From NCBI GenBank assembly GCA_963749495.1, contig CAVVMW010000021.1:416001-480000 (forward strand): DNA of 64,000 nt, given 5' to 3'. The DNA comes from an uncultured bacterium. Lineage in GTDB: Bacteria > Verrucomicrobiota > Verrucomicrobiia > Limisphaerales > UBA8199. This document shows, one piece after another, positions 13,759-45,093 of this stretch (position 1 is its first letter; each line of letters begins with the position of its first letter). The notes below the pieces were generated by a model. The model was not told the DNA's origin. It saw only the letters and a program-made list of their open reading frames with translations, and did not search any database. The position numbers and the translations under genes were made by a program.

Positions 13759-15225
13759 TTACATAAGACCGAGCTTGCGCAAACGGGCCCTGGTGCGGCG
13801 CGTGTGACGTTTGAGATGATCGCGGAACCTGCGGCGGGGTGCGTTGAGCCGCGGGTATTTGTTTTTCTTGCGTTTGACGGCGCGCGGCTCGCGTCGGTTT
13901 GGCCGCTCGGGGACCAAATCGGCGGCTAGCGTTTCGAGCAGATCGGACCACAGTTGGCGGCGTTTCTTTTTGGAGCGGGCTTGGGCCATGGCCTGGGTAA
14001 AGTGCCGGATTGCGTCCAGCGAGCCTTTGAAGCTGATGCGCTCCAGGGGCACCTCATGTTCGGTGGCGGCCTGAGCCATGGTGCCACGGATGAGATTGTG
14101 GGCGATGAGGCGCGTGTAGGCCTCTTTGCGAACCATGTTCGGGCTGCGCCCGCGGAGGGTCTCCATTTCCAGAGTGGTTTTCAGGTCATCCAGGCACATC
14201 TCCAGGCGCCACCGCCGCAAGTAAGCGCGGAGGATCTGCTCGGCGGGGTAGAGTTCTGGGTCCAAGAGCGTGGTCACCAGTTTGACCTGGCGTACGCGGA
14301 AGCCTTTCTGATAGCAACTGCCCTTGACCACGCGCACCGTCAACTGGCTGGGCAAGCCAATCCATTGGAGCAGCGTCAGCCAGGGAGCCCGGCGCTGGGG
14401 TTTTTCCCACACGAAGAGCCAGTCGTTTCTGCCCAAGCGGCGGAGCCGCCTTCGCCCATCGAGCCGGCGCGTGGACCGCCCGATGAAGTCCACGTTCAGA
14501 AGGTGCTTGAGCCAGGCGAGGACCGCGTAAAAACCGAAGCCGCGGTCTGCCACCAGGATATCCCCGGCCGCCAACTGGGTGCTGAGCAGCGTCAACAACG
14601 ACAGTTCGGAGACCGCCAAGCTGCCTTGGGCCATGGCCAGGATCGCGCCGCTGAGCATGGAAAAGAGCACGACGATGCGCATCTTGGGGAAGCTGGGTTT
14701 GTCGGCGCACTGCATGGGGGGATACGCCCTTCGGTTTTTGCGCGTGTCGGCCAGTGTGAGCGCCGAGCCGTCGGCGGCCTTGAGGGGCCGGCCTTGGAGT
14801 TGGGTCAGGGCCGGGACTTGCTTGTCGGCGGCCCGGGCGGTGGCGGCCAAAACCTTGGGGAATTCCCTGAGAGGCAGCCGGGCCTTGGCGCGGCAGTAGG
14901 CGCCGTCCTCGGGGGAGATCTGGGGGCCGTCTTCCAAGAGGAAGAGGGCCTGGAGTTGGCGCACGACCTCGCGCCCGGAGGCGTCGGGGTTGAGGGCTTG
15001 CCAGACCATGCACCAGAAGGTGCGCCAGCGGGTGTAGTCGCGGTCGCGGCAGTTTTTGTGGGCGGAGGCCTTGGCCTTGGGAAAGCACTCCTGGGGTACC
15101 GAGGAGGAGAAGCACTTTTCCAGTTGGCAGAGGGTATAGGCGCGGACCTGGCGGCAGGCGTGGGCGGTGCGGGAACCCAAGCGGGCCAGGCGAGAGCGCC
15201 AGGGTGCGAAAAAGGGCGTGTGCAT
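13759..15225 (-). CDS. IS4-family DDE transposase
   Basis: AADGS (D), VADRGF (D), YLRRWRLEMCLDDLK (YREK motif); stop codon inside the left inverted repeat. Confidence 0.93.
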   Translation of the reverse strand: MHTPFFAPWRSRLARLGSRTAHACRQVRAYTLCQLEKCFSSSVPQECFPKAKASAHKNCRDRDYTRWRTFWCMVWQALNPDASGREVVRQLQALFLLEDGPQISPEDGAYCRAKARLPLREFPKVLAATARAADKQVPALTQLQGRPLKAADGSALTLADTRKNRRAYPPMQCADKPSFPKMRIVVLFSMLSGAILAMAQGSLAVSELSLLTLLSTQLAAGDILVADRGFGFYAVLAWLKHLLNVDFIGRSTRRLDGRRRLRRLGRNDWLFVWEKPQRRAPWLTLLQWIGLPSQLTVRVVKGSCYQKGFRVRQVKLVTTLLDPELYPAEQILRAYLRRWRLEMCLDDLKTTLEMETLRGRSPNMVRKEAYTRLIAHNLIRGTMAQAATEHEVPLERISFKGSLDAIRHFTQAMAQARSKKKRRQLWSDLLETLAADLVPERPNRREPRAVKRKKNKYPRLNAPRRRFRDHLKRHTRRTRARLRKLGLM

Positions 15226-15245
15226 GTCCAGTATATATACTGGAC
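15226..15245. promoter_or_regulatory. Perfect 20-bp palindrome, putative operator between the divergent IS genes
   Basis: GTCCAGTATATATACTGGAC; overlaps TGGACT-17-TAAAAT (15241-15269). Confidence 0.6.
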
Positions 15246-15277
15246 TATGCTTGACCGGCAAGCTAAAATTGAGGCCG

Positions 15278-15628
15278 ATGAACAAAAATCTGGATAAGGG
15301 CACCGCCTCCTGGGACCGGCAATACGAGCAATTGCGACGCCGTTTGAGCCAAATAGGCTACCTCAGCCAGGGCTCGGTGCAGGACCGCACGCGGCGCTCG
15401 GGCGGAGGTGCCGGTTACCAGTGGACGCGCAAAGTCGCGCAGAAGACGATCACCGTCTCACTAACCCAGGAGGAGTTCGAGCAGATGCGCCAAGCGGTTA
15501 ACCACTACCGACAGGTGCGGGGGCTGTTGCGTGACATGGAGCGGCTGTCCCGCAAGATTATCTTCCAGAGGGCACCTCATCCCCATCAACGCAAGCGCCT
15601 AAGCGCCAAAGTTTTAGGCACTAAGTAA
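15278..15628 (+). CDS. IS accessory protein, DUF6788-like
   Basis: LSQIGYLSQGSV...YQWTRKVAQKTITVSL pattern; stop codon inside the right inverted repeat. Confidence 0.7.
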   Translation: MNKNLDKGTASWDRQYEQLRRRLSQIGYLSQGSVQDRTRRSGGGAGYQWTRKVAQKTITVSLTQEEFEQMRQAVNHYRQVRGLLRDMERLSRKIIFQRAPHPHQRKRLSAKVLGTK

Positions 15629-22700: not shown

Positions 22701-23834
22701 TCACGCCGCCTGGCGCTGGGCGGGGCGGGCGGGGATGCCGGCCAGGCGGGCCAGTTCGCGGTGGAGGCGGGCGACACGTTCGACCTGGCCCTTGGCGGCA
22801 AACCGCTCGTAAAAGCCCTCGTTGCGGAAGTCGCGCACGTGCTCGGTCCATGGGGAGAGCCGCTGACGCCAGCGGTCGAGGCGGCCCTCTTCGGGGGCGG
22901 CGTCCTGGGCGGCGAGATCGGCGCAGACGCGGATCATGGCCTTGAGGGTGACCGGTTTGGTGACCATGTGGCTGTCATTGCCCCAGGCCTCCTCGAAGAC
23001 CTGCGAGGCGGCCTTGAGAAAATCGCCGACGCAGTCGTAATAGCGGGCCGCCGCCCGTTTGTCGGCGCCTTCGGGCTCGATTTGCTGCCAGTCCTGTTTG
23101 ACCCAGCGATGGATTTCGTTGAACAACTCCGCCTGGAGGATCCACTTGTCCTGTTTGCTGCGGCCACCCAGGCGGTTGATGCGATACCGCAGCGGGCTGT
23201 CCCCCTGGCTGTAGAGCATCTGGACGACCCGCGCCGCGAACCGGCGGTCCGGCTCCGCCCAGGACACCCGCTCGTAGAGGTCCACCAGGTGGCTCTTGTT
23301 GATGCGCGTGGGCGTCGAGTTGATGATGACGAACATCTCCGCGGCAAAATCCTCGCTCCGCCCGTCGAAGATGACGCACGGCACATAGATCGACTTGGCC
23401 TCGTCCGGGTGCGTCCGCTCGTAGAACTGCAGCGCGGCCAGCCGGTGCTGCCCGTCTATGATCAGGAATTTCTCCGCCGGGTCCGGGAGGTTGCCCACCG
23501 TCTGGTTTCCCGCCAGCAACTCGAATTGGAGCTTCTCCGGCGTGAACAGCAGCACCGTGCCCGGTATCGGCGGCTGGCTCACGGCCGTCTCGTAGAAGTT
23601 GCGGATGGCGCGCACCTTCGAGCGCGAGAGCAACCGCTGGAAGGCCTTCTCGCTCCGCTCGACCCGCCCAATGAATTGCGCCACGTCGTCCTCCGCCGCC
23701 GCCTCTTCGGGCTTGATCTCCTCGCCCTCGTCGTAAAAACGGCTGATGAACCGCACCCGGCCCAGCAGGTCCTCCGACGGATAAGCCACGAAATAAAACA
23801 CCGCGTCCTTCTGCCGTATCTGCGTTGCGATCAT
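22701..23834 (-). CDS. DGQHR-domain (DndB-like) protein
   Basis: FQRLL...V..I, IIDGQHRLAAL, MFVIINST. Confidence 0.88.
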   Translation of the reverse strand: MIATQIRQKDAVFYFVAYPSEDLLGRVRFISRFYDEGEEIKPEEAAAEDDVAQFIGRVERSEKAFQRLLSRSKVRAIRNFYETAVSQPPIPGTVLLFTPEKLQFELLAGNQTVGNLPDPAEKFLIIDGQHRLAALQFYERTHPDEAKSIYVPCVIFDGRSEDFAAEMFVIINSTPTRINKSHLVDLYERVSWAEPDRRFAARVVQMLYSQGDSPLRYRINRLGGRSKQDKWILQAELFNEIHRWVKQDWQQIEPEGADKRAAARYYDCVGDFLKAASQVFEEAWGNDSHMVTKPVTLKAMIRVCADLAAQDAAPEEGRLDRWRQRLSPWTEHVRDFRNEGFYERFAAKGQVERVARLHRELARLAGIPARPAQRQAA

Positions 23835-23973
23835 TTCTGCGCCTTTCGTTGAAACTGCACCCGGTTCGCCAATGCGCCCGGCCCTCGTAAAACCCGACGC
23901 GTCCGGCCTGGCGCGTTCGCCATCGAGGGCCATCTTAATCCGGCTCCGCCCGGAAGACAAGACCAGGCGAGTC

Positions 23974-24108
23974 GTAGCGCAGGTTTCCAAACCTGCTGTA
24001 TCGCCGATTTCCAATCGGCAGGGCGTCGGCATATCGAGCGCCCCCGATTTGCCGACGGCCTGCGGGTTTGGAAACCCGCGATACGGCAGGTTTGGAAACC
24101 TGCGCTAC
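23974..24108. repeat. GTAG-type REPIN
   Basis: GTAGCGCAGGTTTCCAAACCTGC...GCAGGTTTGGAAACCTGCGCTAC. Confidence 0.88.
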
Positions 24109-24207
24109 GCTGGCGCCCCGGGGCGCACAGGCGCGCCGAGCGACTCTGTCAATGGCCCTGCCCCGTCCCTCGGCGGTCCCCACTTCTTGCTTGCGGCATG
24201 ACAAAAC

Positions 24208-25515: not shown

Positions 25516-25626
25516 AGCAGGGGAGACCTTTGTCGCAGCCTTTGTCGAAACCTTTGTCGGACCGGCCATGTTGCGATTAGATTAGACCTTGGTTCATAAG
25601 TAATCGGACACGCATACACCTCGCAC

Positions 25627-25728
25627 AAAAGCGGCAGAGGACTGCCGCACTCCAAAACGCTTCGCGAAGCAGGGATGCGGCCGAGGTCGCGCTAGCGTCT
25701 TGGAGTGCGGCAGTCCTCTGCCGCTTTT
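25627..25728. repeat. REP doublet AAAGCGGCAGAGGACTGCCGCACTCCAA
   Basis: Inverted pair; family members at 36527, 40807 and (degenerate) 46020. Confidence 0.85.
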
Positions 25729-25880
25729 CCTCGCAAACCCAATCTCTAAGCCCGTGCCGAGGGGCAGAGATTCCTGTTGTTGACCTTCGATTTCTGGCTT
25801 CCTGTGAACGGAGACCTAACGACAAAGGCTGCGACAAAGGTTGCGACAAAGGTCCGGAGCTGGGGTTTTTGGGCCGCGCG

Positions 25881-27014
25881 TTACCTGAAGCGGGTTTGCT
25901 CGAAGCGCGCGTAATCCTTCATCATCTGCTCGGTGGCGCTGGGGGGGATGGTTTTCAGCGCGCACTCGATGTCCTCGGGGGTGAGCAGGTTGGAGCCGCC
26001 GCCGATCGCGCGGCGGAAGCCGGCCCGCTTGGCGCTTTGGATAATGGCGACGATGTCCGACCCGGTGTAGCCGTTGAGCCTCGGCGCCAGGGCCGGGGGG
26101 TTCACCGCCGCATCGACCGGGGCGGCGCCGAGCTGCTTCTTGAGCATGAACTCAATCGCCGGCTCATCGGGCAGGCCGACGAAGATCTTCTCGTCGAACC
26201 GGCCGGTGCGGAAGACGGCGTCATCGATGTCCCAGGGTTTATTGGTGGCGCCCAGCAGGAGCAGGACGTTGGGGGACTCGACGAATCCGCCGATCTCGGC
26301 CAGGAACTGGACGACCAGGCGGTTGTCCACCACGGAGTTGCCGCCCCGGCGCGGGAGCAGGCCGTCCACGTCATCCAGGAAGAGGACGCTGACCGCCTGG
26401 GAGCGTGCGGCCAGGATGAGCTTGCGCAGGCGCTGCTCGGATTCCCCATGCCATTTGCTGCGGATCTCGGCGCCGGTCGCGTAAAAAAAGGCCGCGTCCA
26501 ATTCCCCCGCCACCGCCTTGCCCAGGGTGGTTTTGCCGTTGCCCGGCGGGCCAAAAAGGAGCAGGCCGCCGCCGGCGCGGATGCCCCATTCCCTGGCCTT
26601 GTCCGGGTGCCGCATCGGTTCGATGACCATCTCATCCAGCTTGGTCTTGACATCGTCCATGCCAGCGATGTCGTTCAGACGCACGTTGGGCTTGTCGGTG
26701 ACCAGCCAGTCTTCGCTGCCCTCGGCCGCCTCCCCTTTGCCTGCGGGTTGGTCGCTCACCGGTTGGCGGGCCCGGCTGGACGAATCGGCGCCGGCGGCTT
26801 TGGCCTTCTGCTGCAACTCCTCGGCAATCTCGACCAGGTCTCGAGCCTCGGTCACAAAACCGCGCCGGATCCGGCCGTCGGTCTTGTCCGAGAGCTTGAG
26901 GGCGAACTCGGCCGCCTTGGCCATGTGGAAGGCCCCGCCTCGCAAATTGCCCTCCTGCATCGCCGTTTCGGCGGCGGCCGCATGTTCACGCTTTTTATCG
27001 GCATCGAAGCTCAT
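25881..27014 (-). CDS. Single-ring AAA ATPase with MIT-like N-domain (Vps4/CdvC-like)
   Basis: KPNVRLNDIAG, GPPGNGKT, SKWHGESE, LFLDDVD, ATNKPWDID, C-terminal TPEDIECALKTIPPS; doubled AAGGAGG ribosome-binding site. Confidence 0.9.
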   Translation of the reverse strand: MSFDADKKREHAAAAETAMQEGNLRGGAFHMAKAAEFALKLSDKTDGRIRRGFVTEARDLVEIAEELQQKAKAAGADSSSRARQPVSDQPAGKGEAAEGSEDWLVTDKPNVRLNDIAGMDDVKTKLDEMVIEPMRHPDKAREWGIRAGGGLLLFGPPGNGKTTLGKAVAGELDAAFFYATGAEIRSKWHGESEQRLRKLILAARSQAVSVLFLDDVDGLLPRRGGNSVVDNRLVVQFLAEIGGFVESPNVLLLLGATNKPWDIDDAVFRTGRFDEKIFVGLPDEPAIEFMLKKQLGAAPVDAAVNPPALAPRLNGYTGSDIVAIIQSAKRAGFRRAIGGGSNLLTPEDIECALKTIPPSATEQMMKDYARFEQTRFR

Positions 27015-27047: not shown

Positions 27048-27962
27048 TTAGGTCTCCAGCCTCAGCGCAAAGGTCATAATCGAGACATTGTAGGCAAAGG
27101 CCAGGCCCGCCAGCAGGAGGAACAACGCCGCCGAGAACCAGGACGAAAAGCCGACCTCAAGCATCACCAAGGCCATGAGGACATCGACAGCCAGGTAAAT
27201 CCCCAGCGTGAAGGCATTCGAGCGGTTCGACCCCTTGCGCACCATGGTGCGGATGAATGAGATGGTGAGGACCGGGAGCAGCAGGACGATGGCCGCCCAG
27301 ATGAAGAGCCGCCGCGCCCAGGCCATCCGCTGCACCGGCGCCGGCGGGTCCAGCGCCGCTACGGCGGCCGCCGCCGTTGCACCGGGCGCCCCGGGCTTGG
27401 TCTCGTTATTGTAATGGCGCGTGAAGACCGTATCGCCGCTGCCCACCTCGGCCAGAGTCAGGTCGAGGTCGAGCCTGGCGCCGCCCGGATAGGACTCGAA
27501 GCTGTTGATCTTGCCGAAGAGCACCCCCTGCGCCCCGGAGCCGCCGGCCTGACGCTGCGCCTGGCCCGGCTCGGTCGGCCCCTGGACGCGCAGGTGCAGG
27601 GCCTTGCGGAGCCTGTCCCAGAGCCGCTCCTGGCGCACGTCGAAGACGCCGCTCTGCTCCAGCGCCGAGCGCAAGTGGTCGCTGACATAATCGCTCGGGT
27701 CATTGGCCAGGTGCAGCAGGACGACCGACCCGACGGGGGCCTTGGCTTTGCGCAGGTCCTCGACGATGAGCGGGACCATTTCGTTTGCCGTCTGTTTGCG
27801 CAGCATCCCCACCTCGGGCTTCGTGGGGCCGATGTAAAACCAGCCCTGCAACAGCAGATAACCCGCCAGGGCGGCCACGCCCAGGAACACGAGCAATCTG
27901 AACAGCCAGGTTACCGGATGGCGAACGACGCTGACAGGGGTTTCATATAATGTTCTTAACAT
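27048..27962 (-). CDS. Membrane protein: N-terminal TM, CsgG/LpoB-like alpha/beta domain, three C-terminal TM helices
   Basis: Hydrophobic segments; pattern VVLLHLAND...L.SALEQSG.F.V...GAQGVLFGKI...LDL.LAEV..G..VF. Confidence 0.75.
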   Translation of the reverse strand: MLRTLYETPVSVVRHPVTWLFRLLVFLGVAALAGYLLLQGWFYIGPTKPEVGMLRKQTANEMVPLIVEDLRKAKAPVGSVVLLHLANDPSDYVSDHLRSALEQSGVFDVRQERLWDRLRKALHLRVQGPTEPGQAQRQAGGSGAQGVLFGKINSFESYPGGARLDLDLTLAEVGSGDTVFTRHYNNETKPGAPGATAAAAVAALDPPAPVQRMAWARRLFIWAAIVLLLPVLTISFIRTMVRKGSNRSNAFTLGIYLAVDVLMALVMLEVGFSSWFSAALFLLLAGLAFAYNVSIMTFALRLET

Positions 27963-27980: not shown

Positions 27981-28638
27981 TTAGTGTTCATTGCCGTCGA
28001 TGATGCTCCGGGCCCGCCGCCGCAGGTCGGTGGTGTCCCCGGCCTCGGCCGTCTTTTGGACGGCCCCGCGTTCCCTGGAGGGCGATTCGCTCTCCTGCTG
28101 TGCGCCCACCTCGTCTTCGAGGTCCTTGAACATCTGGTCGATCGACGGGATGGTCTCGGCCATCGAGGTCTGGACCCCGTCCATCTCCTTGCCGTGCATC
28201 TTCTCCCAGAACGCGGTCGGTGTCCACCTGGTCGCCCAGCTTGTCCTCGACCTCGCCCAGCACGTCGGCTACGGAATCCGGATCGATCCTGACCACGGTG
28301 TTGATGGCCCCCAGGGCGCCGGAGAATTCCTGGTCGGTTTTGGCCATCTCCAGCTTGGCGAGCAATTGCTCGAAGACCCAGCGTTTCATCTCCAGCTTGG
28401 ACATCATCAACTCGCTGGCGCGGCAGGTCTGGAGGTTGCGCTGGGCGGCGGCCTTCTGGCCGTCCCGAAGGTAGCTCCGGGCATCGGCCCAGGCCTTGTC
28501 GCGGTCCGTCTTGAGCTTCTTGATGCGGTCCTTCACGGCATCCACCGCGCCCTCCGCCTCGCGAAAAGCCCTCCGCCGTCTGCTCCTGCCTTCGCGCTCG
28601 CGCTCTTGTCGGGATTTGAATAGGTCTTGAACGGCCAT
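27981..28638 (-). CDS. ESCRT-III (CHMP2/Snf7)-like coiled-coil protein (frameshift near 28215)
   Basis: About 218 aa after joining ORFs 27988-28725 and 27981-28199; basic helical hairpin, acidic C-half, terminal DTTDLRRRARSII. Confidence 0.75.
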
Positions 28639-28758: not shown

Positions 28759-29361
28759 TCACTCCAGCTCCAATTGCTTGAGCAACTTCAAGTCGTCCTG
28801 CGAAAAATGGCGGGCGGCGCCGCCCTGCGCGGGCATCTCGTGGAGCTCGCCCTCGCTGTTTTCGGAGGCGAACACCGCCGGCTTGTGTTTGATCTTCTGC
28901 AAATCCGTGAGGGCCTCGTTGGCCTCCTCGACGCGGTCCAAGGCCTCCTCCAATTGCACCGCGATGGCATCCAGGTCCTCTCCTTTGACCCCGCGCCCAA
29001 TGGCGTTTTCCAATTCGCCGAGCTTTTCCAGGGCCATGGTGTTGGCCTCGATGCTCGCCAGCAGGAAATCGCCCGGCCCTTCCATCCGGCTCAACTGCCT
29101 CAAGTCCATCTGGATTTCCTTGGCCAGGAGCCTCTGGTTCAAACCGCCGGTCCGGTCGTACTTCGCCTTTTTGTCTCGAATCCGCTTTTCGTGCTGCGTG
29201 ATCTCCTCCCGCAGCCCGTCCAGGCGGTCCTGGTTGCCGGCGCGATTCCGGGCCAAGCTGTCCCTCCAGAGCCTCAACTGCTCCTTCTCCCCGGGCCGCA
29301 GCCCCAGCCCTCGAGCCAGGCGCGAAGCCACCGAACCGATAAAATCGCTAAAATTCTCCAT
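28759..29361 (-). CDS. Second all-helical ESCRT-III-like protein
   Basis: 200 aa; amphipathic N-helix, basic coiled coil, acidic C-half, terminal DDLKLLKQLELE. Confidence 0.65.
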   Translation of the reverse strand: MENFSDFIGSVASRLARGLGLRPGEKEQLRLWRDSLARNRAGNQDRLDGLREEITQHEKRIRDKKAKYDRTGGLNQRLLAKEIQMDLRQLSRMEGPGDFLLASIEANTMALEKLGELENAIGRGVKGEDLDAIAVQLEEALDRVEEANEALTDLQKIKHKPAVFASENSEGELHEMPAQGGAARHFSQDDLKLLKQLELE

Positions 29362-29757: not shown

Positions 29758-29800
29758 AGCGAGGGCGCACCTTAGTACTACCGGACGCAAATACGGTGAC

Positions 29801-29937
29801 GTAGCGCAGACCTCCGAGTCTGCTGTATCGCCGACTTCCAAGTCGGCTGCGCGTCCGTGAAGGCACGCGCGTCCGCACCTCGGTTGGCCCGCAGGTTTGG
29901 AAACCTGCGAGACAGCAGACTCGGAGGTCTGCGCTAC
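29801..29937. repeat. GTAG-type REPIN
   Basis: GTAGCGCAGACCTCCGAGTCTGC...GCAGACTCGGAGGTCTGCGCTAC. Confidence 0.88.
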
Positions 29938-29996: not shown

Positions 29997-32701
29997 TTAG
30001 TTCTCCTTAATCCAAACGATGGACCGTCCGCCGCGGTTTAACCTGGCGTAATTGGGAATGGCGGTCAGGGGCTGGCCGTTGGAGAAGGTGCCCTTGATGA
30101 CCATGACGCCGCCCAGCAAGTCCGGGTTCCATTCGGCGCGAAGGGGCGAGCCGGGGCCGAGGGCAAGGTCGAGATTCTGGTCAACGGTTTCGATGTTGTA
30201 GAGGAGAGCGCCATAGCGGAGGGCAACGCGTCCGCGGAGGGCGGCGACCTGGGGGGCGGCCCGGAGGCGCTGGACTTTCATCGGGAACATTACCTCAACT
30301 TTGTCCCCGGCCTTCCATGTGCGCGTGAGGCCGGCGTAGCCGTTCTCGATGGACGGTTTGACCGGGGACCCGTTGACGGAAATGGCCGTGAGGCCCTCGC
30401 AGGCGGGGCTTGCGGTGTAGAGGAGGCTGACATTCCTGCGCGGGACGCGGAGCTTGAGTGTGAACCGCTTTGGCTGGGCGGGGCTGACGCCGAGCTCCAC
30501 CTTGCCGCTCCATGGATAATCCGTGGTTTGGGTCAAGGTCACCGCGGTTCCGCCGATGTCCGCCTTGGCAGTGATTCCCGAGTAAAGATTGACAAAGAGG
30601 GCATCCGCCGTTTTGGAGCAGGTCCAGGACGGCAGCATGAGGAGGGTGCGCGGGATGTTTCCGACGCAGCACGGGCAGCCATGCCACTTGTAACGTTTCT
30701 CGCCGGAATCCAGCGGGTTTGTGTAGGTGAAGTTCTCGGCCTCGAGGTCGAGCGAGCCAAGAATGGCGTTGTAAAGCGTTTCCTCGTAGAGGTCGGCATA
30801 TTGCCCTTGGCCGTAGGTGAGCTGCAGCTTGTATTGGAAGAACAGCTCCCCGCAATCCGCGCACGATTCGGAATAGGCGCGGTTCGGGAGCGAGTAGTCC
30901 TTGCCAAAGCCCTCCGAGGTTTCGCCGCTGCCGATGCCGCCGGTGACGTAGTATTTCCGGTTCACGATGCTGTTCCACAACGACATGACCGCCGAGCGGT
31001 ATTCCGGGTCGCCCGTTTCCATGGCGATGTCCGCCATACCGGAGTAGCAATAGGCCGCGCGGACCGCGTGGCCGACCGCTTCGTACTGGCGGGTCACCGG
31101 CAGATGGCTCTGGTCGTACTCCTCGCCATGGCCGCGCGAGTCGAGGAGAAACCTTGCCAGTTCGATGTATTTCCGGCCCTTGCCCGGGCCGTCGAGCCGC
31201 TCGACGAACCGCCCCAGGCGGACCAGCGCCTGCTCGAGTTCTTCGTGGCCCTCGTACCAGGCCCGCTTGGGCGCCGGGCCGATGTTGGCGCACCAGCAAT
31301 CGGCGAGTTTTCGCGCCGCGTCGAACAGGCGCCGGTCTGCGCCATCGGTGAGCAGGCAATGGGCGATGGCGGCCTCGATGAAATACCCGGCGTTGTATCC
31401 TTCGTGGTCGAATTTGTTGGACCATCGTTTGTTGCCATTGATGGTGTACATCGTCTGGAGATACCCGTCCGGCTCCTGGGCGCCGAGGATGGTGGGTATC
31501 CAGTCCTCGAGGGTCTTTCGCAGGGCGCGCTGGGCATTGGCGATCTCCGGGTCGCCCTGCGGCTCGACCATCAGAGCCAGGCAAGTGGATTCCACCGTGT
31601 TATAGACCCACGCATTGGCGAAGGGGGCGCCGGTGTGCCTGGCGCCGCTCTTTCCCTCGAGTTTGTTGGCGGCCTGCACGAAATTCTCGATGCCCCCTTC
31701 GGGCAGTCTTGGATCCGAGATTTTGGCCGCGCAGTGTGGAATCCAATGAACGATAATGTTTTTGATCCGAGGCCTCCAGAAGGGACTGCCCACGCTGTAG
31801 GGTTCGGGCCAGACCGTCTCCAAGTGGTTGCTGGGGGCCGGCGGTTCAACGGTCACGTTGACGGTGTTGGTGGAGGCGAATTGCCCGTCGTCCGCTTTGA
31901 GCGCGAGCACGTAAACGCCGGGCTCGGAAAAACGCGCCGCGCTTTCGGGCTCGCCTGGACTCTCAAACGCCACGGAGCCGGGCCCGACAGCTTCCCCCAT
32001 GTCACGACCGGGGAGGGCAAGACCTTGCCGTCGTCCCTTACCGCCCCGCTGAGCCATGTCGGGGCCGGCAGCACCACACTGCGGTCGACGCCCGCGCTCA
32101 CCATCGGCGGAAAGTTCGGGGACTTGCCCGAGTCATACACACGCCATTCGAGCAGGCCGGTCGAGAAGGCGCCGTTGGAATCCAACTCCAGCCTCAGCCT
32201 GGAAGTAGTGACCTCGGAGAAAGTTGCCCGGTTGAACCTGTCCTTTTCCAGCGCCGGCCCGTTTGCGCCCGGCGCGGGCACGAAGCCCTGGCCATCCCAG
32301 TAAAGGACCCGGCAGGCCCTGGGCAGACGCACGCCCCGGTCGTCGTCGAACCAATACACCTCCATGCTTCGCGTCGAGATTGGCTGGGACCATTCGTACT
32401 GCACCCATTGGGTTCCGCTTCTGGGCCAGTTGCCGTAAGCGCCGTGGCTCTTGTCGTTCGAGTTTTCCGGCGTGAACCCGTCGTTGAGGGCGGTGATCGT
32501 CTCGTGTCCGGAGACAAACGAGGTGGAGGAGCGCGCAACCAGGGCAAGGTTAAGGCCGCCCGCGCCGGCTCGCTGGGAAGCCGAATCTCCGCCGGGGGCC
32601 TCCCCTGCCCTGGCGCCGCCGGCGAGCAGCGCGCTCAGGGCAAGCACCAGGGTCCGAACAGCCGTTCCTCCGCAACTCGACGTAGCTAGTAGGTGTTTCA
32701 T
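29997..32701 (-). CDS. Secreted GH127 beta-L-arabinofuranosidase-like protein with discoidin-like and PKD-like domains (frameshift near 31980)
   Basis: HEGYNAG, AVGHAVRA.Y, YVTGGIGS..EGFG, YSESCA, PCC; signal peptide; PPMVSAG.D. Confidence 0.88.
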
Positions 32702-43984: not shown

Positions 43985-45093
43985 GCGTTCAATTGGCTGA
44001 GCAGGTTGTGCAGGAACACGGCATTGTCGCACTGGAGATAGCGCATCGCGCCGCCCATGCGTGAAAAGCTCTTGCAGAAGCGCAGATAATAGGCGGGATG
44101 GGTCTTGGGCGGCTCGCCCTTGGACCAGTCCCAATGGCCGCCGTCCTGGATGTCCACGACATAGATGGCGTGGCCGCGGACGATTGGGCGGCCGGCCTGG
44201 AGCCGGAGGTTGTTGACGCAGCTCAGGCTCTTCTCGAAGACCTGCGGGGCCATGATGGCCGAACCGACAACCAGGACGACGCCGCCGTCCAAGCCCTCCA
44301 CGGCGCGGCCGAAGAGGCGGAAATCGATTGCGGCGGCACGGCCGATGGCAGCGCCGTTGAACAAGGGATGGTTGGAGATAATGTCGTAGCCGATGCCCGG
44401 GTGGGCGGTCATGGGGACATTCCGCCTGAAGGCCTGGGCGAGGATCGACGTCTCCTTCCAGGGGTGGGGCGTCTCGATGCGCCCGGCGGGCAGTTGGCGG
44501 GCCTGCACGACTTGGAGCAGTTCGGCGCGGGCCGGGGCCAGCGGGTGCCTGGGTTCGGCCCGCAAGGCGGCCTCGAGCGACTCGGCAGAGGGCAGCGTCG
44601 TCCCCTCCTCGCAGATGAAACGCCCGAGGCTGCGGCCATAGCCTTCGTTGCGCAGCGCCCCGGCCAGCAGCGCCAGGTGGATGCAGCGGCCGGTTTCCTC
44701 CCAGGTGCCGAAGGTGCCTGTGGCCACATTGTCGCGCACGCTCTCTTCGGTGCGGCCCAGATAGGCCAGCTCCCAGTCATGGATCGTGCCGGCGCCGTTG
44801 GTGGCCAAGTGCGTGAGCCAGCCCCGCTCCACCAACCGGTTGACCACGCGCAGCAAGCCGCTCTTGAGGAGGTGCGCGCCGTACATGAGGATGACGGCCG
44901 CCCCGCGCTCGCGGGCAGCCGCCATTTGCCGGGCGCAGTCCCCAATGGCCTCGAGCATCGCCGCAGGACACGCGGGCGGTCGGGCCGCCGGGTCGCGCAG
45001 GAGTTGCTCGACCGAGGTCTTGCTCCTGCGTTCCGAGAGCGGATAGACCTTGAGTTTCGTCAGATCGAGCGGTTCAGGGAAATCCGCGCTCAT
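43981..45093 (-). CDS. Conserved hypothetical protein, deoxyhypusine-synthase-like fold (inferred)
   Basis: MYGAH..K.G, HLATNGAGTIHDWE, HPGIGYDI, VGSAIM.PQVFEK; coupled to the kinase. Confidence 0.7.
   Translation of the reverse strand: MSADFPEPLDLTKLKVYPLSERRSKTSVEQLLRDPAARPPACPAAMLEAIGDCARQMAAARERGAAVILMYGAHLLKSGLLRVVNRLVERGWLTHLATNGAGTIHDWELAYLGRTEESVRDNVATGTFGTWEETGRCIHLALLAGALRNEGYGRSLGRFICEEGTTLPSAESLEAALRAEPRHPLAPARAELLQVVQARQLPAGRIETPHPWKETSILAQAFRRNVPMTAHPGIGYDIISNHPLFNGAAIGRAAAIDFRLFGRAVEGLDGGVVLVVGSAIMAPQVFEKSLSCVNNLRLQAGRPIVRGHAIYVVDIQDGGHWDWSKGEPPKTHPAYYLRFCKSFSRMGGAMRYLQCDNAVFLHNLLSQLNA

Follow-up and report, generated by a model that had tools for sequence, protein, structure and literature searches.

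The 64,000-nucleotide stretch analysed here (hereafter the window) comes from an uncultured bacterium of the Verrucomicrobiota (assembly GCA_963749495.1, contig CAVVMW010000021.1, positions 416,001 to 480,000), and all coordinates below count from its first letter. Its minus strand carries four close-packed genes in the order coil200, a Snf7-like gene, mem304 and an AAA ATPase gene. The Snf7-like gene, the second of the four, is divided between two reading frames by a single extra base, and its product belongs to the Snf7 family, the family of ESCRT-III subunits. The ATPase begins with a small domain predicted to fold like an MIT domain, which is the domain that Vps4 uses to grasp ESCRT-III tails. 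The four genes and the parts of them discussed below are as follows.

28638..27981, minus strand: whole Snf7-like gene, encoding a predicted 218-residue ESCRT-III-family protein, split over two frames by one extra base.
28210..28638, minus strand: first frame of the Snf7-like gene, residues 1-143 (translation, Pfam Snf7, match of the intact homologue P0002 to the bacterium's own genome).
27981..28208, minus strand: second frame of the Snf7-like gene, residues 144-218 (WEKMHGKEM...IIDGNEH) and the TAA stop (translation, P0002 match, tail alignment).
28209..28211, minus strand: position of the single extra base (codon comparison, alignment, overlap of the two frame matches at 28204-28211).
28345..28611, minus strand: predicted α1-α2 helical hairpin, residues 10-98, of the ESCRT-III core (AlphaFold2 model of P0002).
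27999..28037, minus strand: conserved C-terminal tail helix, residues 201-213 (DTTDLRRRARSII in this gene), which may bind the N-domain of the ATPase (AlphaFold2 model).
28759..29361, minus strand: coil200, a 200-residue coiled-coil protein, upstream of the Snf7-like gene (open reading frame).
27048..27962, minus strand: mem304, a 304-residue membrane protein (hydropathy segments 15-44, 213-242 and 248-300).
25881..27014, minus strand: AAA ATPase, 377 residues, single cassette (Pfam AAA, E=2.6e-33, and AAA_lid_3).
26778..27014, minus strand: predicted MIT-like three-helix bundle at the N-terminus of the ATPase, residues 1-79 (AlphaFold2 model and fold searches).

The first frame of the Snf7-like gene starts at the ATG at 28638 with MAVQDLFKSRQ, reaches EVEDKLGDQVDTDRV and then continues out of frame to a stop at 27988. 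It holds the conserved N-terminal MAxGDLFKS motif, a basic stretch and helices α1 to α4 with the hairpin turn DGQ. The second frame, which contains WEKMHGKEMDGV and DTTDLRRRARSIIDGNEH, encodes helix α5, a disordered linker and the C-terminal helix, and closes at the stop at 27983..27981. An earlier interpretation made from the letters alone (hereafter the sequence-only reading) had quoted three peptides from this gene. All three are found on the minus strand, with IKKLKTDRDKAWADARSYLRDGQKAAA and IDPDSVADVLGEVEDK in frame from the ATG at 28638 and DTTDLRRRARSII in the frame that closes at 27983..27981. An intact homologue (P0002, 84% identical) maps onto the window in the same two parts, its residues 1-145 on 28204-28638 and its residues 143-217 on 27987-28211, in different frames. 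The identity to P0002 is 85% before the break and 83% after it, with no further stops after the break, and a search with P0002 found no second copy of the gene in the bacterium's own genome.

In all 14 related loci compared, an invariant TGG codon (Trp) stands immediately after an Ile, Val or Asn codon, and the window reads GAC CGC GTT C TGG at this site. Because the window has GTT C TGG where the homologues have one codon and then TGG, the extra base is placed at 28209-28211. The sequence-only reading had proposed that removing one base near 28215 joins two open reading frames (ORFs) into a protein of about 218 residues; the one-base frameshift and the joined protein stand, whereas the break lies 4-6 nucleotides away from the proposed position. 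The proposed junction GAC-C-GCG (D-A-F-W) gives way to D-R-V-W, as in P0002. The gene is also not of the kind that ORF callers would miss, as had been supposed. The first frame is open to 27988 and forms an ORF of 216 residues, of which 1-143 are the correct Snf7 core and the last 73 are out of frame, so that a gene caller would report a 216-residue protein with a wrong last third rather than overlook the gene.

For database searches, the gene was translated across the break with an X at the break (read-through query P0001). In a search of 5.8 billion proteins, 360 matched this query at E<=1e-3. Among the 120 matches listed, identities range from 58 to 84%, the matches cover 80-100% of the read-through, and the matching proteins are 191-228 residues long, most of them 213-228. 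Matches of this number and extent go far beyond what chance would give, and the joined 218-residue protein is therefore regarded as the real product of a well-populated gene family.

The sequence comparisons place this family among the Snf7 proteins. At E<=0.01, 86 of the 88 family members are recognized by the Pfam Snf7 profile (PF03357), the strongest match having E=7.6e-9; Ist1 matches two of the 88. P0002 passes the Snf7 gathering cut-off (27.8 against 27.3 bits). In sequence searches of the PDB, yeast Snf7 chains are the sole matches at E<0.05, with E=0.0076 for the single protein and E=1.4e-4 for the family profile, and the alignment to Snf7 is collinear from the hairpin to α4. Two local resemblances named by the sequence-only reading can be judged on these alignments. 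The segment IDPDSVADVL, said to recall Snf7, is aligned by HMMER to the corresponding segment of yeast Snf7. The hairpin turn SYLRDGQKAAA, which had been likened to CHMP2/Vps2, is likewise aligned to the matching Snf7 segment, but the particular affinity to CHMP2 is lost, as no CHMP2 chain appears at E<=10.

An AlphaFold2 model of P0002 built with 88 sequences contains helices at residues 10-58, 62-98, 102-117, 120-133, 140-152 and 166-184; a last helix, at 201-213, comes after a disordered linker. The mean predicted local distance difference test score (pLDDT) is 69.7, and the scores in the hairpin are 81-92. The model thus shows the ESCRT-III layout, with a long α1-α2 hairpin that is followed by α3 to α5 and a flexible C-terminal tail.

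In 16 of 17 related loci from a genome collection, the Snf7-like gene is followed by the ATPase gene; the 17th locus is cut off within the Snf7-like gene by the end of its contig. Several loci, L007, L008 and L013 among them, have the stop of the Snf7-like gene at or over the start of the ATPase gene. The window is the only copy in which a membrane gene stands between the two. This membrane protein, mem304, is encoded in 14 of the 17 loci. Its single N-terminal transmembrane (TM) segment is followed by an extracytoplasmic LpoB/CsgG-like domain and then by a hydrophobic block at the C-terminus; the last two hydropathy segments, which form this block, can be read as three further TM helices, giving four in total. 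The LpoB assignment is weak (Pfam LpoB, E=0.004, and an Atlas lead).

The first gene of the group, coil200, is present in 11 of the 17 loci (nine found by tblastn and two by inspection of ORFs), and its family comprises 295 cluster representatives at E<=1e-3. Its C-terminus carries a conserved LSxxTxxRLKQLE motif, which might offer the N-domain of the ATPase a second helix to bind. Kinship of coil200 itself with ESCRT-III was considered, but no comparison showed it. Its hhalign probability against the Snf7-like family is 1.2%, or 2.5% with deeper alignments. In Pfam searches with 69 coil200 members, Snf7 is not among the 25 most frequent of 30 matching families and PspA_IM30 matches one member, and profile searches of the PDB return generic coiled coils only. 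The Atlas leads for coil200 are weak (Snf7 0.86, PspA 0.82).

The ATPase has one cassette of the classical AAA clade. On alignment with its family, we recognize GPPGNGKT, LDDVD, SKWHGESE and RTGR, which we take to be the Walker A motif, the Walker B motif, the pore loop and the arginine fingers, respectively. In the ATPases of the window and of two further loci (L005 and L009), the Walker B motif reads L-D-D-V/L-D, with Asp in place of the catalytic Glu, and the other 13 have D-E. The alignment to the CdvC model spans positions 86-365 of 370, and the Pfam Vps4_C profile (PF09336) matches 8 of the 16 ATPase family members at E<=0.1 (best 1.1e-5). The first 85 residues are modelled by AlphaFold2 with a pLDDT of 86 as three helices (3-20, 24-43 and 48-79). 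The top Foldseek matches of this domain are the MIT domains of the Sulfolobus Vps4-like protein (2w2u and 2v6y, 22-27% identity), and the MIT domain of human VPS4B is also matched. In the VIA comparison, MIT domains occupy every one of the first 11 rows (Z 10.6-11.9, root-mean-square deviation (rmsd) 1.6-4.5). When 48,161 representative chains were searched by fold without bias, MIT domains took 8 of the top 10 ranks with Z 10.0-10.8. Judged by fold, the modelled N-domain is therefore an MIT-like three-helix bundle. The sequence-only reading had looked to the N-domain of an ATPase as the partner of the tail, and an AAA ATPase with an MIT-like N-domain is indeed encoded in the operon of the Snf7-like gene.

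If this domain receives the Snf7-like subunit, a candidate ligand is the C-terminal tail helix. This helix is conserved in the family, and Arg206 and Arg208 are nearly invariant among 88 sequences. Two types of tail occur. Type I (D-T-x-D-L-R-x-R-A-R-x-I-I-E-G-N) is found in the window, L005 and L009, and type II (I-G-E-G-R-R-R-L-K-D-L-L-E-G-E-K) in the remaining loci. Type I pairs with an ATPase subgroup whose AAA domains are 78-79% identical to that of the window; the other ATPases are 32-43% identical to it. The subgroup with Asp in the Walker B motif is exactly the one paired with the type I tail. The α5 segment does not track this division. The co-variation of tail type and ATPase type, which we read from aligned sequences, fits co-evolution of the tail with the ATPase, though it could simply mirror the linkage of neighbouring DNA.

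The sequence-only reading had gone further and seen in the tail an approximation to the MIT-interacting motif MIM1, for which the consensus (D/E)xxLxxRLxxL(K/R) was used here. This resemblance dissolves on closer inspection. The best fit within the last 35 residues satisfies 3 of 6 positions, and shuffled tails reach the same score in 14425 of 20000 trials with relaxed matching and in 6001 of 20000 with strict matching. Because so many shuffles reach this score, the likeness to MIM1 is at chance level, which counts against the proposed docking of the tail. The tails of 15 homologues score 3-5 (relaxed) or 2-4 (strict) against the pattern. Passages of PMC9477494 describe at least seven modes by which MIT domains bind ESCRT-III tails; since so many modes exist, the misfit to MIM1 leaves room for docking on the MIT-like domain in another way.

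Taken together, we give a probability of nearly 0.8 to the following reading: a bacterial Snf7/ESCRT-III protein is encoded in a conserved, horizontally spread module of three to four genes, along with an optional coil200, a CdvC/Vps4-like MIT-AAA ATPase and an LpoB-like protein with four TM segments, and the proteins work through a polymer whose tails dock on the ATPase. In the mechanism that we propose, the Snf7-like subunit would polymerise on the cytoplasmic face of the inner membrane, to which it may attach via its invariant N-terminal motif and the basic α1. The putative role of mem304 would be to anchor or nucleate the polymer, or to signal the condition of the envelope. Docking on the MIT-like domain would fall to the conserved tail helix of the Snf7-like subunit, and perhaps also to the C-terminal helix of coil200, and the ATPase would remodel or disassemble the polymer, as Vps4 does.

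The distribution of the module is patchy. The 17 loci come from Verrucomicrobiota, Planctomycetota (Phycisphaerae), Kiritimatiellia, Lentisphaeria, Hydrogenedentota, Anaerolineales (Chloroflexota) and Desulfobacteraceae (Desulfobacterota). Two of the three congeners carry the Snf7-like gene, whereas it was found in none of 21 other genera of the family and in none of the 16 other families of the order that were sampled. Across the phylum, 12 of 400 other sampled genomes have it, at least one of which is a complete genome of 6.1 Mb in a single contig (G237). Another genome of this sample contains two tandem copies of the gene (G308:C52:10440-12409). A tree of the core region places the window in a short-branched cluster, unresolved and with members from five phyla. 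We read the sporadic occurrence and the mixed-phylum tree as probable horizontal spread under strong constraint.

Such a distribution might also be expected of a system for conflict. Within 6 kb of the module, caspase-domain proteins are encoded in L005, L013 (two) and L018, papain-like proteases in L010 and L018, Ser/Thr kinases in L014, L016, L017 and L019, and DUF4384 proteins in L007 and L018. At least one of these kinds of gene lies near the module in 9 of the 12 loci examined. The module could accordingly be proposed to serve conflict or programmed cell death, for example in membrane-damage repair or execution under caspase-like proteases and Ser/Thr kinases, rather than housekeeping, and the sporadic distribution and the mixture of five phyla in one tree cluster would agree with this. 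We consider it unlikely on present evidence, although it fares better than any other alternative. None of the known defence systems is complete in the flanks of the 12 loci, where the matches are limited to generic caspases and kinases, and PADLOC gives only generic IetA and TRIP13 AAA matches for the window ATPase. Kinases are numerous in these phyla, and two of the loci with kinases (L016 and L017) are close kin, so that the loci are not independent. Relatives of the Snf7-like gene were found neither on IMG/VR viral contigs nor on PLSDB plasmids nor in INPHARED phages. The neighbours of the module in the window itself are an antiporter gene, a GH127 gene and a DndB-like gene. We therefore take the company of proteases and kinases as pointing towards, but not establishing, a role in signalling or conflict. 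It may hint at regulated membrane repair or cell death, by analogy with eukaryotic ESCRT-III acting against pore-forming death effectors.

Other features of the window, including those beside the module, are as follows.

29997-32701, minus strand: GH127 β-L-arabinofuranosidase-like gene, split, with the break within 31919-32072 (a 282-residue ORF at 32701..31853 and a 686-residue ORF at 32057..29997).
22701-24032, minus strand: DndB/DpdB-like protein (Pfam DndB, E=2.2e-9; PADLOC DpdB, E=3.1e-16).
13759-15303, minus strand: DDE transposase (Pfam DDE_Tnp_1, E=1.8e-14).

A block with the antiporter gene and the four genes of the module is flanked on either side by a palindromic repeat element (23973-24109 and 29800-29937). 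The two elements are related, each about 137 nucleotides long, and have inverted arms that are 90-93% complementary. They may mark where a mobile unit ends, or they may be common intergenic repeats. The antiporter and ATPase genes converge, and the space between their ends, at 25525-25854, holds nested perfect or near-perfect inverted repeats, which include triplicated units of the CGACAAAGG type (I4, I5, I10 and I14) and are possibly terminators or a repeat element.

The assignment of the ATPase is the next point at which the proposed module could fail. Among NCBIfam models, CDC48 (195.1 bits, cut-off 802.65) outscores CdvC (178.6 bits, cut-off 650), and both scores are far below the cut-offs. 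VAT and p97 lead the PDB sequence matches of the ATPase. The window ATPase has no Pfam MIT match at E<=1 and no Vps4_C match in Pfam. In the unbiased fold search, rank 50 still reaches Z 7.9, so that the Z values of 10-12 for MIT domains are not far above those of unrelated rows. These observations weigh against a Vps4-like partner. The higher CDC48 score, the VAT and p97 matches and the lack of a Pfam MIT match, together with the Asp in place of the Walker B Glu in the type I subgroup, would suit a single-cassette unfoldase derived from Cdc48, with a convergent helical N-domain and with substrates other than Snf7. Sequence scores do not separate the two possibilities, because Vps4 is itself thought to derive from Cdc48, according to passages of PMC10936438. 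Since helical bundles commonly give such Z values, we base the MIT assignment on the consistency of the hits and on the place of the domain before an AAA cassette and beside a Snf7-family gene. The Cdc48-type unfoldase is improbable in our view. It would leave unaccounted for the position of the ATPase gene next after the Snf7-like gene in nearly every locus, abutting or overlapping it in several, as well as the predominance of MIT domains at the head of the unbiased search and the Vps4_C matches in half of the ATPase family. We retain the ATPase as a probable Vps4-like partner of the Snf7-like protein.

A third question is whether the frame break belongs to the organism. The assembly is of 11.4 Mb in 31 contigs, with a completeness of 88%. 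In this assembly, the essential rpoB gene lies in three adjacent pieces in three open frames (G000:C14:203791-207603, outside the window). In the congeners, rpoB forms one frame in G001 (1305 residues) and G002 (1317 residues) and four pieces in G003. Because rpoB is broken both here and in G003, the two most contiguous assemblies of the genus appear to contain indel errors. A second broken gene, the GH127 gene, lies 3.8 kb from the Snf7-like gene; a single congener protein maps onto it in two frames, and the congeners have open frames of 912-924 residues. All 12 Snf7-like matches in the phylum sample are single open frames, and no frame break was found in the 17 related loci over the DNA available (two of them, L020 and L021, are cut by contig ends). 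It is thus very probable that the one-base break in the window is an indel error of the assembly, which the gene in the organism itself would not have.

Several observations are at odds with an assembly error. Two other genes of this assembly, rpoC and secA, are intact, and the extra base lies outside any long homopolymer (GTTCTGG). The operon of the window is also rearranged, with its membrane gene between the Snf7-like and ATPase genes. No reads spanning the break were found in public sequencing runs (the best share of words was 0.13), and contigs from two runs cover 28284-28530 only, not the break site. Because no reads over the break were found to exclude a real frameshift, we infer the artefact from the other broken genes. 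A real frameshift would mean a Snf7-like gene that was recently inactivated or truncated, with the polymerising core (residues 1-143) kept and α5 and the tail lost. This is quite improbable, given that an essential gene is in three frames in this assembly and whole in two congeners, that a second gene is broken nearby, and that the part after the break is conserved like the part before it. A completeness of just 88% with only 31 contigs would also fit marker genes broken by indels. Because rpoB is broken likewise, the view of the gene as hidden in a biological sense, or as a pseudogene, finds no support.

A scan of the phase of G+C content at third codon positions flagged further possible frameshifts in the window at about 13250, 16300, 44000 and 55550, none of which was confirmed by Pfam or congener searches. 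The phase switch near 44000 resembles an ordinary gene boundary upstream of a PfkB kinase gene.

With the joined protein taken as the product, its membership in the Snf7 family has to be weighed against some weak scores. The window's own pieces stay under the Snf7 cut-off of 27.3 bits, with 26.4 bits (E=6.1e-6) for the N-terminal part and 23.0 bits for the read-through. The Foldseek top rows for the P0002 model are a Snf7 core, Sulfolobus CdvB and Asgard ESCRT-IIIB, but at E 0.04-0.09, and there is no Foldseek match at E<=1e-3. In the VIA comparison, the hairpin of the model superimposes on the Snf7 core 5fd9 with an rmsd of 1.0 over 79 residues (Z 7.7), and the model reaches Z 8.6 with Snf7 9jsd. 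BAR domains and Vipp1 tie with these (Z 7-8.6 is shared), and fold alone is therefore not discriminating for this protein. That the protein is instead a PspA/Vipp1-type stress protein or a generic coiled coil with a merely compositional Snf7 signal, as the borderline Pfam scores of the window and the fold matches to Vipp1 and PspA (Z 7.2-8.3) might suggest, is highly improbable, because not one of the 88 family members matches PspA_IM30 (PF04012) at E<=0.01, against the 86 matched by Snf7, no PspA or Vipp1 chain appears at E<=10 in PDB sequence or profile searches in which Snf7 chains alone reach E<0.05, and the collinear Snf7 alignment extends from the hairpin to α4. PspA or generic coiled coils, which the sequence-only reading had named as the best hits that would speak against it, are thus not what the searches returned, and the sequence comparisons support a Snf7/ESCRT-III protein rather than a PspA.

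The frameshift and the MIM1-like appearance of the tail, which first drew attention to this gene, thus carry little biological weight, and the interest of the locus lies in the conserved bacterial module of Snf7 and MIT-AAA proteins. The pairing of Snf7 with a Vps4-like ATPase is usually credited to archaea and eukaryotes alone, and here it occurs in a bacterial operon. With a bacterial Snf7 gene directly upstream of an MIT-AAA gene, the origin and spread of the partnership between Vps4 and ESCRT-III become directly testable in bacteria, and the module offers a small system of four proteins for studying the recruitment and disassembly of polymers. A more far-reaching proposal, which we put forward only tentatively and would not yet favour, is that several phyla (the Planctomycetota-Verrucomicrobiota-Chlamydiota (PVC) group, Hydrogenedentota, Chloroflexota and Desulfobacterota) may share, by horizontal transfer, a complete inner-membrane cutting or repair machine of the ESCRT-III and Vps4 type, which would combine a polymer and a motor for its disassembly with a membrane adaptor of its own.

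Among known systems, the PspA/Vipp1 (IM30) proteins, which are the accepted ESCRT-III superfamily members of bacteria, share with the Snf7-like protein the predicted superfamily fold, a bacterial host and a presumed site at the inner membrane. They differ in family, as the absence of PspA_IM30 matches indicates, and in the partner ATPase, which in the module is a classical-clade MIT-AAA protein and not PspF. The likeness to eukaryotic Snf7/CHMP4 and other ESCRT-III subunits comprises membership in Pfam Snf7, the alignment of the hairpin and of α3-α4 to yeast Snf7 with 22-26% identity, and a common arrangement in which a flexible linker joins the helical core to a helix at the C-terminus. In contrast to the eukaryotic ESCRT-III/Vps4 system, the tail of the module protein fails to match MIM1 beyond chance, there is no CHMP2 signal and the window ATPase lacks a Vps4_C match. 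No ESCRT-0, ESCRT-I or ESCRT-II genes were seen in the scanned flanks of the module.

The archaeal CdvB/CdvC pair resembles the module in its genetic arrangement, with a Snf7-family subunit encoded beside a single-cassette AAA ATPase that has an MIT-type three-helix N-terminus. The MIT domain in the Sulfolobus MIT-CdvB complex (2w2u) is the top Foldseek match of the ATPase N-domain, and the CdvC model aligns with the ATPase over nearly its full length, although the score of 178.6 bits is far from the equivalog cut-off of 650. Archaea encode the membrane-associated CdvA as a third partner, to which the membrane protein of the module may be likened. The host of the module, however, is bacterial, and this partner is an LpoB-like protein with a predicted four TM segments, not CdvA. 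The CdvB tail contains a proline-rich MIM2 strand, whereas the tail of the Snf7-like protein ends in a conserved helix. The module is also sporadic and apparently spread horizontally, so that it does not appear to be a core division system like Cdv.

In the literature, two recent papers, PMC10936438 and PMC7619361, call ESCRT-III and Vps4 systems absent from bacteria, the latter, a review of 2025, stating that a Vps4-like ATPase appears to be absent there. A comparative study of the phage-shock-protein (PSP) system (mSystems 2024, PMC11237479) reports transfers of VPS4-like ATPases to bacteria and some bacterial PspA and Snf7 members that adjoin AAA+ ATPases. In its example of a VPS4-like transfer, snf7 is displaced by a TPR-6TM protein, unlike in the present module, and its cases of Snf7 with AAA+ ATPases have a TM segment and lie in long ABC-transporter operons, unlike the compact arrangement described here. 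We found no description of the compact module (coiled coil, Snf7, MIT-AAA and LpoB-like four-TM protein) in the literature searched, which did not cover the supplement of PMC11237479, where it may be described. We therefore regard the module as a new bacterial version of the pairing of ESCRT-III with Vps4, a pairing that the PSP comparative study has partly anticipated.

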